Assembly: GCF_036405015.1 (NCBI RefSeq)
Contig: NZ_DASWYK010000243.1
Location: 3,704 to 67,703, forward strand
Reading direction: 5' to 3'
Length of the DNA stretch: 64,000 bases
Origin: Flavobacterium sp.
Lineage (GTDB): Bacteria; Bacteroidota; Bacteroidia; Flavobacteriales; Flavobacteriaceae
This document shows positions 19,153-26,101 of the stretch, piece after piece. Below the pieces are notes generated by a model. The model was given only the letters and a program-made list of their open reading frames with translations, had not been told where the DNA came from and made no database searches. Both the position numbers and the translations under genes were made by a program. Positions within the stretch are counted from its first letter, which is position 1. Each line of letters begins with the position of its first letter.

Positions 19153-20682
19153 TTACGAATTCATTTTTTTAATTTCGTAAAGATCAGATCTACGGTCTTT
19201 TAACGTTTTAACGCTTCCATGTTCGTGAAGTTCTTTCAATAAATCGACATCAACGTCAACAATTAGAGTCATTTCGGTATTTGGAGTAGCCTCTGCTTTG
19301 ATTCCGTTACTTGGAAAAGCAAAATCAGATGGTGTAAATACAGAAGATTGCGCATATTGAATATCCATATTGTTCACTTTCGGAAGATTTCCAACACAAC
19401 CTGCTATGGCTACATAACACTCATTTTCGATGGCGCGAGCCTGCGAACAATGTTTGACACGTGTATAACCGTTTTGTGTATCTGTTAAAAAGGGCACAAA
19501 TAATATGTTCATTCCTTCATCTGCCAAAAGTCTTGAAAGTTCTGGAAACTCGACATCATAACAAATTAAAATTCCAATTTTACCGCAATCGGTATCGAAG
19601 GTTTTAAATTCTGAACCGCCTTTCATTCCCCAATGAATTACTTCGTTTGGTGTAATATGAATTTTGGTATACATTTCTGAAGTTCCGTCTCTTTTACATA
19701 AGAAACCGACATTATACAGATTTCCACTTTCTACATAAGGCATACTTCCAGTAATAATATTGATGTTGTATGAAATCGCAAATTCTTGGAATTTCTTTTG
19801 AATGGGATCAGTATGACGAGCCAGTTCACGAATGGCTTCAGCTTCAGATAAATGATTGTAATCGGCCATTAAAGGAGCTGTAAACAATTCCGGAAATAAA
19901 GCAAAGTCAGATCCATAACCAGAAACAGCATCGATAAAGAATTCGGCTTGTTCAAAAAGAGCTTCAACATTGTTCAACGGACGCATTTGCCACTGAATTA
20001 ATCCTAAACGAATGATGTTTTTCCTTAGGTTAATCAGTTTCGGACTTTCTTCATAATAAATATTGTTCCATTCCAGTAAAACAGCAAATTCTTTAGATTC
20101 TTCGTCACCTTCCAAATAATTTTTGATGATTCTTAAAACGTGAAAATCGTTGCTCAATTGGAAAGTCAATACTGGATCATATAATTCTTTGGTTCGAACT
20201 TTTTCAATATACGCTTTAGGAGACATTTTTTTAGCATGCTCTCTATAACTCGGAATTCGGCCAGCAAATACAATGGCTTTTAAGTTCAGTTGTTCGCAAA
20301 GTTCTTTTCTCGCGTCGTATAAACGTCTTCCTAAACGTAAACCTCTATAGTTTGGATGAATAAAAACATCAATTCCGTATAAAATTTCTGCACTTGGATT
20401 ATGAGTAGAGAAGGTGTAGTCGCCACTAATTTGCTGATAATTATGTCTTTTCTCTACTAATTTTTCATCGACAATAAGCGATAATGCCGAGCCCACTACC
20501 TTTCCGTCCACCAAAATTACGAGCTGTCCTTCTGGGAAAATAGAAAGAAGTCTTTCAATATCATCAGATCCCCAATACGAATCGGCCATTTCTGGATACG
20601 ATTCAATCATTGATTTTTTTAACTGTTTGTAATCTTCAATTTCTAAATTTCGTAATTCTACTTTTTTGATTTTTGCCTGCAT
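19153..20682 (-). CDS. GNAT acetyltransferase / carbon-nitrogen hydrolase fusion
   Basis: N-terminal YRGLRLGRRL; nitrilase triad FPE, YTKIH, ICYDVEFPE. Confidence 0.92.
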   Translation of the reverse strand: MQAKIKKVELRNLEIEDYKQLKKSMIESYPEMADSYWGSDDIERLLSIFPEGQLVILVDGKVVGSALSLIVDEKLVEKRHNYQQISGDYTFSTHNPSAEILYGIDVFIHPNYRGLRLGRRLYDARKELCEQLNLKAIVFAGRIPSYREHAKKMSPKAYIEKVRTKELYDPVLTFQLSNDFHVLRIIKNYLEGDEESKEFAVLLEWNNIYYEESPKLINLRKNIIRLGLIQWQMRPLNNVEALFEQAEFFIDAVSGYGSDFALFPELFTAPLMADYNHLSEAEAIRELARHTDPIQKKFQEFAISYNINIITGSMPYVESGNLYNVGFLCKRDGTSEMYTKIHITPNEVIHWGMKGGSEFKTFDTDCGKIGILICYDVEFPELSRLLADEGMNILFVPFLTDTQNGYTRVKHCSQARAIENECYVAIAGCVGNLPKVNNMDIQYAQSSVFTPSDFAFPSNGIKAEATPNTEMTLIVDVDVDLLKELHEHGSVKTLKDRRSDLYEIKKMNS

Positions 20683-21521: not shown

Positions 21522-22217
21522 TTATAAAACAGACGCCCCATTTATATCAGTCGTAAGCACTTCACTCATATAATCAAAAAAGGGCCTCATGTTTTTAAAA
21601 GCATCCAAAGCCATTTCTAAAAATTGCGGACTCAATACTTCTTCATCCGTAAAGCGTTTTATGACTAGAAATTGTTTGTAACGAAGTAAATCAATTGCTG
21701 GATGGTCTAAATCAAAACCTTTTGGTTTGGTTTTGAGTTGTTCGCCCTGAAGGGTTCCGAAATTGCTTTTAAAGGATTTTGAATTTAATATTTTTTGAAA
21801 GCTTTCGGGATCTTGAGCAAATTCTGCTCTTATTCTTTTTAAATCTGCAGCGCTTGGTCCCCAGAAGGCTCCGGCGAAAAAGCTGTTTCCTCCTTTTTCG
21901 AGGTGAAAATAATAACCGCCACGTCTTGCTGCGGTTGCACGCGTAAAACTGCCTCCCCAATAATCTTTGAAAGGAGTTTTATCTTTAGAAAAACGAATAT
22001 CACGATAAATTCGGTAAACGCTTTTCTTGCCAGAAGTATTTTCTAACACATCTGTTTTAGAAAGCTCTTTTAGCAAAGCACCTGCAAAATTTTCGATATG
22101 ATTTAATTCGATTAAATATTTTGATTTATTGGCTTCAAACCAAGGTTTGTTATTGTTTTCTTTTAGCTGAACCAAGAAATCGAGGCTTGATTTCGGGATT
22201 GTAATATTGTTTTCCAT
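21522..22217 (-). CDS. DUF2461 (TIGR02453) family protein
   Basis: NNNKPWFEANK, YRIYRDIRFSKDKTPFK, PKGFDLDHP. Confidence 0.92.
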   Translation of the reverse strand: MENNITIPKSSLDFLVQLKENNNKPWFEANKSKYLIELNHIENFAGALLKELSKTDVLENTSGKKSVYRIYRDIRFSKDKTPFKDYWGGSFTRATAARRGGYYFHLEKGGNSFFAGAFWGPSAADLKRIRAEFAQDPESFQKILNSKSFKSNFGTLQGEQLKTKPKGFDLDHPAIDLLRYKQFLVIKRFTDEEVLSPQFLEMALDAFKNMRPFFDYMSEVLTTDINGASVL

Positions 22218-22300
22218 AATGAATTTTAAGAATCGAAAGAGACTGCAATTTAAAACTAAAAAAACCACCAGAGAAATCTGATGGTTTTTTCTATATTTTG

Positions 22301-22486
22301 TTAAGCAGTTTTTTTGAATAAATCAAACATAGGACAACGTGAGCAACGCTTCTTTTCGCTTTTTTTATATTTCTCACAGCAAGAAGATTTACAGTTTTCA
22401 ATCTTCTTAATCTTCTCAAGGATAACTTTATTTTTTTTGTCTTTTTTATCCTTTTTCTTCTCCTTGTCTTTTTCTTTCTTGCCCAA
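22301..22486 (-). CDS. Small Lys-rich, Cys-cluster protein
   Basis: 61 aa, CKSSCCEKYKKSEKKRCSRCP; own promoter and downstream terminator (about 22259-22292). Confidence 0.7.
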   Translation of the reverse strand: MGKKEKDKEKKKDKKDKKNKVILEKIKKIENCKSSCCEKYKKSEKKRCSRCPMFDLFKKTA

Positions 22487-22513
22487 TTTTCCTCTGTATT
22501 ATAAAAACAGAGA

Positions 22514-22555
22514 CAAATATAAATCAAAAAAGTTATTTTTACATATTCTAAATAA
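22514..22555 (-). promoter_or_regulatory. sigma70 -7 element (TATATTTG) with overlapping Fur-box-like palindrome
   Basis: caaatata at 22514-22521; atttttacatattctaaat at 22535-22553 (15/19 to the recalled consensus ATTTAGAATTATTCTAAAT). Confidence 0.6.
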
Positions 22556-22568
22556 ACTTTAACTTTTT

Positions 22569-23087
22569 TTATTTTGGATTGATAGCAATTGAACTTGTAA
22601 CCGTTAATTGCTGAATATCACGGTCAAACAAATAAAGTCCACCTTTGTCATCACCAATCAAATTGATTTTATCTAAGATAGATTTTGCTGTAGCTTCTTC
22701 TTCAATTTGTTCCGAAACGTACCATTGTAAGAAATTGTGAGTTGCATAATCTCTTTCTTCAAAAGTGATATGTACCAATTCGTTGATAGATTTTGAAACA
22801 AAAAGTTCATGATTATAAAGTTCCTCAAACATTTCTTTAAAAGTAGAATAAGTTGTTTTAGGTGCTTTAAGATCTGTAACCTGAGCGTGTCCGCCACGTT
22901 CATTTACATATTTAACCAGTTTAAGCATGTGTGCACGCTCTTCGTCTGATTGTGTGTACATAAATTGAGCAATTCCTTCTAATCCTTGTACTTCAGCCCA
23001 ACAAGCCATTGAAAGATAAGTTTGTGAAGATTCTGCTTCTATTCTGATTTGCTTATTTAAAGCCGATTCTATATTGTTTGATAGCAT
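22569..23087 (-). CDS. ftnA: Non-heme ferritin
   Basis: QIRIEAESS, EERAHM, LQWYVSEQIEEE ferroxidase residues. Confidence 0.96.
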   Translation of the reverse strand: MLSNNIESALNKQIRIEAESSQTYLSMACWAEVQGLEGIAQFMYTQSDEERAHMLKLVKYVNERGGHAQVTDLKAPKTTYSTFKEMFEELYNHELFVSKSINELVHITFEERDYATHNFLQWYVSEQIEEEATAKSILDKINLIGDDKGGLYLFDRDIQQLTVTSSIAINPK

Positions 23088-23183
23088 AATATGTGTGTTT
23101 TTGGTAAAATTAAGAAAAAATAATCGAAATCGCTTTTTGAAAACCGCGAAAACATTACACTTTTGGATCAGCTTTCACTAATC

Positions 23184-24635
23184 TCAATGTGATTTTATAT
23201 CGCCAAAAGTGAACGGTTTCGAAAATTCAGATTTATTCATAATTGGATTTCCAATATCCTGCGTCATAATACCGTCTGTAAATTTTCGCATCAAAAATTG
23301 TTGAGAGGCACTTTCATAATAACTCAAAACATAATAATCTTTCAATCGTAATATATCATATATTCTGATTTCCTTATTGCTATTTAAATAATAAAATAAG
23401 TTATCAATAGCCAAAGGTCTTGATTGATAGTCTCTTGTGAAATTTAAATTTTGGTTTAACATAACATCAAAGTAAACGGCTTTCGTTAACGAATATGGAG
23501 TACGTTCTCCAAAATCACTTGAAGAATTGAATGAAAAATAAAAATCGGAATATTCTCCAAAACCGCTAAAAGTGATAAAACTATTTTGGTGGTTTTTAAA
23601 AATAGAAATACCAGCAGGAAGCCCGTTTATGCTTTTCAGGAATTTTTCAGTGGTTTTTAATTGACGAGGAGAATTGTTGTCAATTTGCATTGTAAAAGGC
23701 GAGTTCATAAAAGGAATCGTGTCATTTTTTGAGAATGTATAATTCTTAATGCCTTTCCCTGAATCAAAGTCTTTGATTTCAAACAAAAGGAATTCTTTAT
23801 TTGCCTTCATTTGAAATATTTTATTATCGCTATAAAATGAATTCGTTGTTCGGAACGGAGTTTCTGAAGCTGGCAGATCAAAAGTTTTTTCTTTTATATC
23901 GCCAGTATTAATGTTAAGATCGAAAGCTTGTGTTTTGGTAAGCGTATTGTCGAATGTCAAAATAATATGGTCTTGAACAACATACATTTTGCTTATGCTT
24001 GAAGCCAATTCTATAGGAGTGTAAATATCTGGGTCTATTTTGTTTATCGGGAAATATTTAATAAGTGCATTAAAAGAGATTTGTACATTCCTTTCATTCT
24101 TGAAAATAAATGACGAAAAATCAAACATTTTAATTTCACATTTTCCATCTTCGAATTTGTAAAGAAGCAAATGTTCAAAATCTTTTTCTTTTACCAGCAT
24201 ATAAAACTTGTTAAGTTGCTGGAAACAGCTGATGATATACTCGTGATTTTTAGGAAAATCAAATTTTAAGGATTCTGAGGTTTTGTTATCGAGATCATAG
24301 GTTGTAATTAAAATGTTTTTATAATTTTCTGAACTCCAGTACAACGATGGTTTTTTATGCTCATTGATACTGTAACCAATTAAATCACGACTAATTTCAT
24401 GTTTTAGAGAATCTTTAAATTGATTCGTAAGGAATAAAGACGAATTGTATTTTAAAATATTTACATTTTTATTATCCCAATTAAAAATATAAATATCCTT
24501 GGTTTTTTCGTCTTGAGCATTTAAAATCTGGGTTTTTCCTAGAAAGTTCAGATTTAATGGCAAAGAATTTAGCACTGTTTGGCTAAACAATATTGTTTTA
24601 GAAAACAAAAGAAAGAGGAGTAGCAGTTTTTTCAT
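23184..24635 (-). CDS. Secreted hypothetical protein, paralogue 1 of 4
   Basis: Signal peptide FS-Q; NSFY, PLAIDN, RKFTD motifs shared with the other three. Confidence 0.85.
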   Translation of the reverse strand: MKKLLLLFLLFSKTILFSQTVLNSLPLNLNFLGKTQILNAQDEKTKDIYIFNWDNKNVNILKYNSSLFLTNQFKDSLKHEISRDLIGYSINEHKKPSLYWSSENYKNILITTYDLDNKTSESLKFDFPKNHEYIISCFQQLNKFYMLVKEKDFEHLLLYKFEDGKCEIKMFDFSSFIFKNERNVQISFNALIKYFPINKIDPDIYTPIELASSISKMYVVQDHIILTFDNTLTKTQAFDLNINTGDIKEKTFDLPASETPFRTTNSFYSDNKIFQMKANKEFLLFEIKDFDSGKGIKNYTFSKNDTIPFMNSPFTMQIDNNSPRQLKTTEKFLKSINGLPAGISIFKNHQNSFITFSGFGEYSDFYFSFNSSSDFGERTPYSLTKAVYFDVMLNQNLNFTRDYQSRPLAIDNLFYYLNSNKEIRIYDILRLKDYYVLSYYESASQQFLMRKFTDGIMTQDIGNPIMNKSEFSKPFTFGDIKSH

Positions 24636-24706: not shown

Positions 24707-26101
24707 CTAATCAAATCCGTCGGTGAATTTGCGTAAAACATATTCTTTGGCAATTGTATCATAATAACCTAAAATAGAATAATTGCTCAGTTTTAGAATA
24801 TTTGGAAAAAATATTTCCCGATGATTGTCTATAAAATAATAAATCTTGTCTGCTGCCAGAGGTTCATGAGTTTCGGTAGTTAATTCCAGTTTTTTTGTCC
24901 AAACGCTTTCCAAAAACACAGAATAATTGCTTTCTATGCTGTAATTATTGGATGGAAAGTCTCCAAAAAAATCATCAAACATATTAAAACCATTCATAGA
25001 TACGGTTCTCGAATTACTACCAGAACCTCCCAACGTGATAAAAAGATTCTTTTTGTTTTTGAATACTGAAAGTCCTGCATCAACAGAAGCTAATTCTTTT
25101 ATAAAACTGGCGGTTTTCTTGATTACTTTCGGTTTTCGATTTTCAATCTGCATCAAAAGTGGCGAATTGTTAAAGCGAATGGTATCTTTTTTTGTTACGT
25201 TAAATGATTTTAAAATTTCACCAGAATCGTAATCTTTGACGTCAAATAAAAGTTCATTCGAATTTACAGTAAGTTGATAGAGCTTATTTTCGTGATAAAA
25301 AGAATTAGAAGTTCTTGGATTTTTCTGGCCTAAAGGCTTTATAAATGTCTTTTCTTTTATCTCAGAATTTTCCAGATTTATATCAAAAAGCTGAGTTTTT
25401 CTGGGACTTTGGTCTAAAGTCAGAATTAAACGATTTGGAAGTGTATATAATTTGTTTTTTGCCACAACCCGATACAGTGGATTGTATTCTCCTGAATCCA
25501 TTTTCTCAATCGGATTTTCATTTAAAATCTGATTGAAGGTTTTCTGCTGGGTTTTTCGATCTCTAAATGTAAAAGAAGAGAAATCGAGAAACTTTTCGTC
25601 GGCAATTCCGTTTTTAAAAGTATATGCGGTTAATGCCTGTTTGTCTTTGTATTTCAGAATCAGATAAAAATTATTGTCTTTCTGATATTGTGCAATAATA
25701 GTTTGATTTTCAGTAGGAAAAGTGAATTTTAGTGCTTTGGTCGTTTTAGTTTCAAAATAGTATTTTATGACAATGATGTTCTTTTCTACAGGCGAAAACC
25801 AATAAACGGTCGGATTACCGTCTTCACTGAAGCTATATCCCATCATAGATCGGTTTTCAACATATTGACGTGTAGCCACAAACTGATCGTTTAGAAACAA
25901 AGCGCTATTGTATTTGAGAATCGTAAAATTATTGGGCGATGCTATAAAAACAAAGACATCATGTGTAATGGTGTTTTCTGCATTTAAAGTTTCACATTCT
26001 TCCTTTGGTGTTTTTAAATCTATTGGATAAGAAGTTAGTACTGTTTGACTTATCGAAACAGTACTATAGATTATAGCCAAAAAAAGGAAGATTTGTTTCA
26101 T
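24707..26101 (-). CDS. Secreted hypothetical protein, paralogue 2 of 4
   Basis: Signal IS-Q; SNSFYHENKLYQ, PLAADK, GYYD...RKFTD. Confidence 0.85.
   Translation of the reverse strand: MKQIFLFLAIIYSTVSISQTVLTSYPIDLKTPKEECETLNAENTITHDVFVFIASPNNFTILKYNSALFLNDQFVATRQYVENRSMMGYSFSEDGNPTVYWFSPVEKNIIVIKYYFETKTTKALKFTFPTENQTIIAQYQKDNNFYLILKYKDKQALTAYTFKNGIADEKFLDFSSFTFRDRKTQQKTFNQILNENPIEKMDSGEYNPLYRVVAKNKLYTLPNRLILTLDQSPRKTQLFDINLENSEIKEKTFIKPLGQKNPRTSNSFYHENKLYQLTVNSNELLFDVKDYDSGEILKSFNVTKKDTIRFNNSPLLMQIENRKPKVIKKTASFIKELASVDAGLSVFKNKKNLFITLGGSGSNSRTVSMNGFNMFDDFFGDFPSNNYSIESNYSVFLESVWTKKLELTTETHEPLAADKIYYFIDNHREIFFPNILKLSNYSILGYYDTIAKEYVLRKFTDGFD

Follow-up and report, generated by a model that had tools for sequence, protein, structure and literature searches.

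A Fur-box-controlled, cysteine-rich mini-protein gene beside a haem-free ferritin gene in Flavobacteriaceae: a candidate analogue of Bfd

In the window (the whole stretch of 64,000 nucleotides of Flavobacterium sp. DNA that was analysed), we found that a non-haem ferritin gene is followed by a gene for a 61-residue protein rich in lysine and cysteine, with a Fur box over the small gene's own promoter. Sequence and comparative analysis show that the gene is real, that its operator belongs to the Fur regulon, and that its synteny with ferritin holds. We put at about an even chance the proposal that its product is a metal-binding or Fe-S mini-protein that acts on ferritin in iron starvation and aids the recovery of stored iron. 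To our knowledge, haem-free bacterial ferritins have no known dedicated partner. A single-copy, Fur-box-controlled mini-protein gene behind ferritin in most genera is thus a concrete and genetically tractable candidate for such a partner, and a testable one for the missing helper that would act on a haem-free bacterial ferritin under iron shortage. The Flavobacteriaceae are major degraders in marine, freshwater, and soil environments and include fish pathogens. The gene would also add an unnamed small-protein family to the Fur regulon, and the comparison provides a well-supported Fur-box matrix for the Flavobacteriaceae.

A small coding gene behind ferritin and its family

On the minus strand, the ferritin gene (22569..23087) is followed by an 82-nt spacer, the 61-aa ORF, a hairpin terminator, and a DUF2461 gene (Table 1). 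The original prediction had placed a 61-aa gene directly downstream of ferritin, and the minus-strand ORF at 22301..22486, whose translation is MGKKEKDKEKKKDKKDKKNKVILEKIKKIENCKSSCCEKYKKSEKKRCSRCPMFDLFKKTA, bears this out. Because an in-frame stop lies four codons upstream, the TTG at 22484-22486 is the sole possible start codon. TTG or GTG starts were observed in 25 of 30 orthologues, each followed by G-K-K-K or a close variant. A scan of positions 22150-23300 detected no terminator-like site between ferritin and the small gene. The short inverted repeat in the leader of the small gene, CTCTG-N11-CAGAG, is loosely kept in the genus and missing in other genera, and its significance is doubtful.

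Table 1. Features of the ferritin and small-gene region (window coordinates)
Feature	Position	Strand	Evidence or remarks
Intrinsic terminator (strong hairpin), common to ferritin read-through and the small-gene transcript	22258..22291	-	Only terminator-like site in 22150-23300
Small-protein gene	22301..22486	-	61 aa, TTG start, 23 Lys, 5 Cys, pI 9.8
Conserved C-terminal cysteine module K33-L56, KSSCCEKYKKSEKKRCSRCPMFDL	22319..22390	-	Invariant residues in 72 sequences; hhalign against the FhuF C-terminal cluster motif
Short inverted repeat CTCTG-N11-CAGAG in the 5' leader	22492..22512	-	Sequence reading
-7 box TATATTTG (perfect Bacteroidota TAnnTTTG) of the small gene's own promoter	22514..22521	-	Sequence reading; 27 nt before the start codon
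Fur box, TTATTTAGAATATGTAAAAATAAC on the gene strand	22532..22555	-	24.1 bits, matrix from 30 orthologous promoters
Non-haem ferritin gene, 172 aa, pI 4.9	22569..23087	-	PF00210, E=6.7e-40
-7 box TAATTTTA of the ferritin gene's own promoter (probable)	23105..23112	-	Conserved block upstream of ferritin

Codon-level comparison across 30 genera points to selection on the encoded protein. Entropy was 1.17 bits at the third codon position versus 0.50 and 0.34 bits at the first and second, and codon differences comprised 4202 synonymous versus 2756 non-synonymous changes. Judged by these patterns, the small ORF is a real protein-coding gene evolving under purifying selection. A search of all ORFs with an HMM of the cysteine module found one copy of the gene in the host genome, and of 200 Flavobacteriaceae genera covered by a six-frame profile search, 81 have exactly one copy. 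When 401 genomes sampled across the phylum were searched, 17 matched, all of them Flavobacteriaceae, and the gene was not found in the other Bacteroidota families of that sample. Separately, we observed a ferritin and small-gene pair with a 35-nt gap, lacking the Flavobacteriaceae-type box, in a metagenome-assembled genome labelled Chitinophagales.

Among 5.8 billion proteins, we retrieved 73 relatives, nearly all of them Flavobacterium "hypothetical proteins" of 55-70 aa without a Pfam domain. A profile search of 1.84 billion representative proteins gave 42 matches, none of which tied the family to a larger known domain; most were shorter than about 140 aa and carried the same tail, the exceptions being a few repeat-like or multi-stretch sequences. 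No relative was detected in a profile search of the PDB, and Pfam and NCBIfam scans of the small protein returned only low-complexity or sub-threshold matches. We found no paper describing the protein and no Pfam or NCBIfam model for its family.

The original prediction had described a C-x3-CC-x10-C-x2-C pattern. This pattern is present, but its first cysteine, C32, is not conserved, being replaced by Y, A, R, P, L, and others in several sequences, and most other genera have a further, fifth cysteine in the tail C-P-C-F-D-L-L-K-K-V-A. Residues 36-51 (CCEKYKKSEKKRCSRC) contain the CC-x10-C-x2-C motif, whose four cysteines are invariant in 72 sequences. The complete set of invariant residues in these sequences is K33, C36, C37, K39, K42, R47, C48, C51, P52, D55, and L56, and the conserved core of the family reads K-S-x-CC-x-K-[YF]-x7-C-x2-C-P-[CM]-F-D-L, with K-K-[VT]-A kept at the C terminus. 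Among remote relatives, 8 to 11 residues separate CC from CxxC. Of the 77,056 six-frame ORFs in the host genome, only 4 contain the CC-x10-C-x2-C pattern with Y or F. AlphaFold2, run with the 72 sequences, predicted with low confidence (pLDDT 62.6) only a long N-terminal helix (residues 3-30) and helices at 35-41 and 52-60, leaving the cysteine region poorly defined. The computed pI of the small protein is 9.8 versus 4.9 for the ferritin.

A Fur box over the promoter of the small gene

A promoter belonging to the small gene had been predicted, and we located its -7 box, TATATTTG, at 22514..22521; in the 30 orthologous promoters, TAnnTTTG likewise follows the operator. The Fur box at 22532..22555, as elsewhere in the genus, extends over the -33 region and the greater part of this promoter's spacer. 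Within it lies the 19-mer of 22535-22553, whose gene-strand sequence is ATTTAGAATATGTAAAAAT. The palindrome had been described as covering the -33 region with one perfect half and TT/AA flanks, and all of these elements are present: the ferritin-side half is perfect and extended by the flanks, and the promoter-proximal arm is degenerate. The Riemerella sequence that had been cited for comparison, ATTTAGAATTATTCTAAAT, is indeed the Riemerella anatipestifer Fur box derived by Guo et al. 2017 (PMC5609570), and in that work Fur shifted promoter fragments carrying the box in EMSA. ATTTAGAATATGTAAAAAT matches ATTTAGAATTATTCTAAAT at 15 of 19 positions, as predicted. Alone, this match is not significant and constitutes weak evidence, because a site with three or fewer mismatches is already expected 0.36 times per 64 kb; the Fur-box reading is sustained through the matrix built from 30 promoters, against which the site in the window scores 24.1 bits.

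Alignment of the 120 nt upstream of 30 orthologues revealed a conserved block, cTTATTTAGAtTtAaTaAAAATAA, in all 30, followed by TAnnTTTG directly or after a few bases. The block is an imperfect palindrome, TTATTTA-N9-TAAATAA, and TTATTTAGAtTtAaTaAAAATAA was found in 30/30 promoters, adjoining the -7 box or a few bases upstream of it. These 30 operator-bearing promoters include 6 loci away from ferritin, and the operator is also kept at 10 of 11 further loci within the genus. The ATTTAGAATTATTCTAAAT 19-mer forms the core of the matrix motif, and the Fur-box reading is supported because the conserved palindrome contains this published box. In other genera, the -7 box directly abuts the Fur box. 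Both geometries, covering -33 or abutting -7, are those expected by position of a repressor.

The matrix, composed of the 30 orthologous promoter sites, was scanned over the 5.3-Mb host genome with five order-3 Markov genomes as controls. We counted 22 positions above 18 bits in the host genome versus 0-2 per simulated genome, and 11 positions above 24 bits versus none; no site as strong as the 24.1 bits of the window occurred in any of the five simulated genomes. On the contig itself, the scan gave no match of at least 12 bits other than 22532..22555. Matrix sites lie upstream of at least four or five Pfam-confirmed TonB-dependent receptor genes, of feoB, of a gene for a FecI-like ECF sigma factor, and of DUF4198 and DUF6607 genes, and Pfam also confirmed phosphate acetyltransferase and a DUF6686 protein next to sites. 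Several more receptor-like ORFs and one FecR-type-like ORF, so classed by appearance, also lie beside matrix sites. The genes of this regulon other than the small gene are scattered over the host genome, which encodes two Fur-family proteins. The excess of matrix sites, their iron-gene neighbours in the host genome, and the Riemerella match together support the Fur-box call as correct. By these comparisons, what overlaps the small gene's own promoter is a genuine Fur box of the Flavobacteriia type.

The matrix scan detected no Fur box over the ferritin gene's own promoter in the window. A block reading TAACTTTA(C), situated about 20 nt before the ferritin ATG, is kept in most of 24 genera and marks the probable promoter of that gene.

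The ferritin neighbour and the likeness of the cysteine module to Fe-S motifs

The ferritin of the window matched the non-haem ferritin model NF007638 with 137.6 bits (E=3.6e-40), below the equivalog cut-off of 178, so that its membership is at the family level and not that of an equivalog. Its translation has Arg51, not Met, at the position of the Bfr haem ligand. The two ferritin-family genes of the host genome both encode non-haem ferritins. This genome has neither a bfr scoring above cut-off nor a stand-alone Bfd, its BFD domains lying only within ORFs of 843 and 1175 aa.

Synteny with ferritin across the Flavobacteriaceae had been suggested as a check on the prediction, and it is extensive. 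In 57 of 82 genomes, each representing a genus, the small gene directly follows ferritin on the same strand, with gaps of 70-254 nt between the matched stretches. In the other 25, it is away from ferritin, which is elsewhere in 17 genomes and without a match in 8. The two genes tend to occur together (odds ratio 14.7, p=4e-14, kinship between genomes being ignored). Of 10 further loci in the genus, 9 keep the order of ferritin, box, and small gene, and at one same-genus locus only about 30 codons of ferritin remain next to the box and the small gene. A remote variant of the small gene is operonic with a histone-deacetylase-like gene and not with ferritin, and the neighbours at loci without ferritin showed no common functional theme apart from this recurrent histone-deacetylase-like gene.

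The original prediction had proposed a protein not homologous to Bfd. Consistent with this, PF04324 (Fer2_BFD) did not match the small protein even at E values up to 10, and by this comparison the small protein is not a Bfd homologue. We also considered YecH (DUF2492), the small protein encoded beside E. coli ftnA, and rejected it as unrelated to the family.

The only recurrent weak model matches of the family are to Fe-S cysteine motifs. Weak matches to the last 28 positions of TIGR03950, the model for FhuF-type siderophore ferric reductases, were observed for 68 of 72 members (best E=0.003), and TIGR03951 was matched by 4 members. TIGR03950 scored the small protein at 13-16 bits, relative to a cut-off of 137.9, and in a six-frame search of the genome it ranked the small ORF first at E=0.23. 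An hhalign comparison paired KSSCCEKYKKSEKKRCSRCPM with the E. coli FhuF tail RRTCCQRYRLPDVQQCGDCTL at E=0.0018 with a probability of only 14.6%. E. coli FhuF reads CCQRYRLPDVQQCGDC at the corresponding motif, and CC-x2-Y-x7-C-x2-C is common to both tails. In the six-frame genome search, PF11575 (FhuF_C) gave no match to the small ORF, and when the HMM of the module was run against all ORFs plus FhuF, FhuF scored 5.6 bits and ranked about 147th of 77,000, indistinct from background. The likeness to FhuF is a motif-level lead and not membership, because PF11575 gives no match, the TIGR03950 match has E=0.23, the HMM score is 5.6 bits, and the spacing is variable. Eight of 72 members also matched the CIAPIN1/anamorsin model PF05093 (best E=4.6e-4), none significantly.

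Proposed function, alternatives, and comparison with known systems

These features suggest a two-gene iron-storage module in which ferritin and the small gene would be regulated in opposite directions. The ferritin gene's own promoter, free of a Fur box, would drive ferritin transcription. Under ample iron, Fe-Fur on the operator would shut the internal promoter and probably block read-through from ferritin as well; when iron is exhausted, Fur would leave the operator and the mini-protein would be made. Its lysine-rich helix may dock on the acidic ferritin shell, and the C-terminal CC-x10-C-x2-C-P-[C/M] may be a metal site, most likely for an FhuF-type Fe-S cluster. The mini-protein would then help return stored iron to the cell, most likely as an electron donor to the ferric core. 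It would thereby take the place of Bfd, which performs this task on haem-containing bacterioferritin, in an organism whose ferritins are all haem-free and which lacks a stand-alone Bfd. The model includes four steps that we infer from sequence: repression in vivo, the binding of a metal, contact with ferritin, and iron release. Because a storage gene without a box is adjacent to a boxed gene for a cysteine mini-protein, as in bfd-bfr, we favour a starvation-induced partner for the recovery of ferritin iron. The small protein could represent, in the most specific form of the proposal, the first partner dedicated to releasing iron from a haem-free ferritin: a Fur-derepressed mini-ferredoxin that has retained only an FhuF-type [2Fe-2S] tail, docks by poly-lysine, reduces the core directly without a haem conduit, and is a convergent counterpart of Bfd. 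We offer this form tentatively and consider it rather unlikely in all its details. We know of no electron conduit in haem-free ferritin, which counts against redox release of iron. Nucleic acid would be an equally plausible ligand for a basic, lysine-rich protein, a point against a ferritin partner.

That point leads to an unlikely reading in which the small protein, basic and Fur-regulated, binds nucleic acid as part of an iron-sparing response, like FbpA, FbpB, or FbpC, with its cysteines forming a zinc knuckle and its adjacency to ferritin reflecting shared regulation. Its extreme basicity (23 Lys in 61 residues, pI 9.8), its Fur-box control, and the persistence of gene and operator away from ferritin, including the 8 genomes without a ferritin match, are consistent with such a role. 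However, adjacency to ferritin in 57 genera is far tighter than co-regulation needs, the other genes of the Fur regulon are scattered, and the Pfam and NCBIfam scans matched no nucleic-acid-binding family; the Fbp proteins are also not known to be cysteine proteins. We see no better prospect for a non-redox action on ferritin, likewise unlikely, in which poly-lysine would plug or gate the acidic channels or would mark ferritin for proteolysis, with the cysteines holding structural zinc. This reading draws on the same synteny and regulation as the favoured one and accommodates the complementary charges (pI 9.8 versus 4.9) and the conserved C-terminal K-K-[VT]-A, and the variable cysteine spacing suits a structural knuckle better than a tuned cluster. 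Nevertheless, both the invariant CC doublet and the Cys-Pro would be more usual in cluster ligands, and the weak model matches of the family are to Fe-S motifs and nothing else.

The synteny might instead be only historical, with the small protein serving as a general Fur-regulated metal or Fe-S factor, such as an iron chaperone or cluster carrier, that has no specific action on ferritin. We regard this as quite improbable given the strong co-occurrence and an order and strand fixed across many genera, even though the two genes are apart in 25/82 genomes, a same-genus genome has the small gene and operator beside only a ferritin remnant, and the remote variant sits with another gene. Least probable, and very much so, is that the product is mainly an RNA, a short Fur-repressed transcript acting like RyhB on mRNAs of ferritin or other iron proteins, with the ORF secondary or the transcript dual in function. 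The unit does combine a Fur box and a strong intrinsic terminator with a transcript of about 230 nt, and the weak TTG or GTG starts in 25/30 orthologues would fit this idea. Conservation is at the amino-acid level with third-position wobble, however, and across 24 genera we observed no excess complementarity to the translation-initiation region of ferritin (mean z +0.3). On both counts, a mainly RNA-based function is unlikely.

Returning to the favoured ferritin partner, its separate features resemble those of several known systems. The operator is like the Riemerella anatipestifer Fur box in that the same 19-bp palindrome centres the 23-24-bp element here and TonB-dependent receptor and feo genes lie downstream in both cases; it differs in the degenerate promoter-proximal arm of the predicted site in the window (15/19). 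With FhuF (PF11575; TIGR03950/TIGR03951), the small protein shares CC-x2-Y-x7-C-x2-C at the extreme C terminus and a place in the Fur regulon. In contrast to FhuF, it has no FhuF body of about 200 residues, all scores are sub-threshold, and the CC-to-CxxC spacing is unfixed in its remote relatives. FbpA, FbpB, and FbpC of Bacillus subtilis are likewise small, strongly basic, and Fur-repressed, but they are not known to be linked to ferritin or to have a conserved cysteine module, and they act with the sRNA FsrA. Gaballa and colleagues reportedly provided in 2008 this B. subtilis precedent for Fur-regulated small basic proteins in the iron-sparing response.

The closest functional parallel proposed here is with Bfd (PF04324), the bfr partner in E. 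coli and Pseudomonas aeruginosa. There are differences: the cysteine pattern is CC-x10-C-x2-C here versus C-x-C-x31-35-C-x2-C in Bfd, the small protein is very basic with a lysine-rich helix and no sequence relationship to Bfd, its partner would be a haem-free ferritin, and the gene order has ferritin first. Bfd mobilises iron by electron transfer through the Bfr haem, which is required (PMC11303784). Because the neighbour here is a haem-free ferritin, this route cannot apply. The two proteins are nonetheless alike in being about 60-70 aa long with four ligand cysteines (putative ones in the small protein), in being encoded beside an iron-storage gene, in their low-iron (Fur) control, which for the small protein is predicted from its operator, and in their role, which for Bfd is the release of stored iron in starvation (PMC11303784) and is proposed to be the same for the small protein. 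On the strength of its regulation, synteny, and cysteine motif, the small protein may therefore function as an analogue of Bfd, a non-homologous counterpart of the Bfd type of storage-protein partner.

Initiation and leader of the small gene

Among the 30 orthologues of the small gene (L004-L033), 25 begin with TTG or GTG, and the start codon is always followed by G-K-K-K-like residues. This pattern suggests that weak or regulated initiation of the small gene is under selection. The 5' leader of the gene also carries a short inverted repeat immediately ahead of the start codon, the conservation of which is loose within the genus.

Variation at ferritin loci

A gene of the histone-deacetylase family (PF00850) recurs in the neighborhood (L005, L009, L012, L023, and L039), lying 5' of ferritin in some genera and adjoining the small gene where ferritin is missing. 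On a metagenome contig, the PF00850 gene forms an operon with the gene for a remotely related variant of this small protein, and a gap of 4 nt separates the two. In a congeneric species (L043), ferritin is reduced to about 30 codons, yet both the small gene and its Fur box are intact. The genome of the window also encodes a second non-heme ferritin, and a Fur-box-like sequence, TTATTTAGATTCTTACTTAGATTAAAT, lies about 70-95 nt 5' of its ATG, outside the core promoter. Some genera (L006 and L011) have comparable half-boxes upstream of their main ferritin gene.

Other Fur boxes and genes

The top-scoring Fur box of the genome in our matrix scan (29.1 bits) precedes the gene for a Cys-rich DUF6686 protein containing NSCCEACEMKYSC, downstream of which is encoded a 403-aa protein with numerous CxxCH heme-binding motifs. 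At another site (28.2 bits), the phosphate acetyltransferase gene (pta) starts 1 nt past the end of the Fur box. pta is an uncommon kind of Fur regulon member, and its presence there suggests a metabolic switch when iron is limited. Within the window, both tandem paralogues upstream of ferritin have signal peptides, and a Pfam scan of the 483-aa member returned no match.

Features at the small-gene locus and elsewhere
Feature	Location	Strand
Leader repeat, CTCTG-N11-CAGAG	window 22492-22512	-
Secreted paralogue, 483 aa	window 23184-24635	-
Secreted paralogue, 464 aa	window 24707-26101	-
Fusion of GNAT acetyltransferase and carbon-nitrogen hydrolase (nitrilase-superfamily) domains, 509 aa	window 19153-20682	-
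Second non-heme ferritin, 35% identical	contig C180, 5940-6557, outside window	
29.1-bit Fur box and DUF6686 protein, 118 aa	contig C36, about 9940, outside window	
28.2-bit Fur box and pta	contig C26, about 1123, outside window	
Ferritin remnant	L043, about 1764-1853	
Ferritin-small gene spacer, 35 nt	L035:3933-3967	

A divergent spacer

In a MAG labeled Chitinophagales (L035), the spacer between ferritin and the small gene contains a perfect inverted repeat, AATATCATT-N8-AATGATATT, in place of the Flavobacteriaceae box, and the arms of this repeat are similar to classical proteobacterial Fur half-sites.
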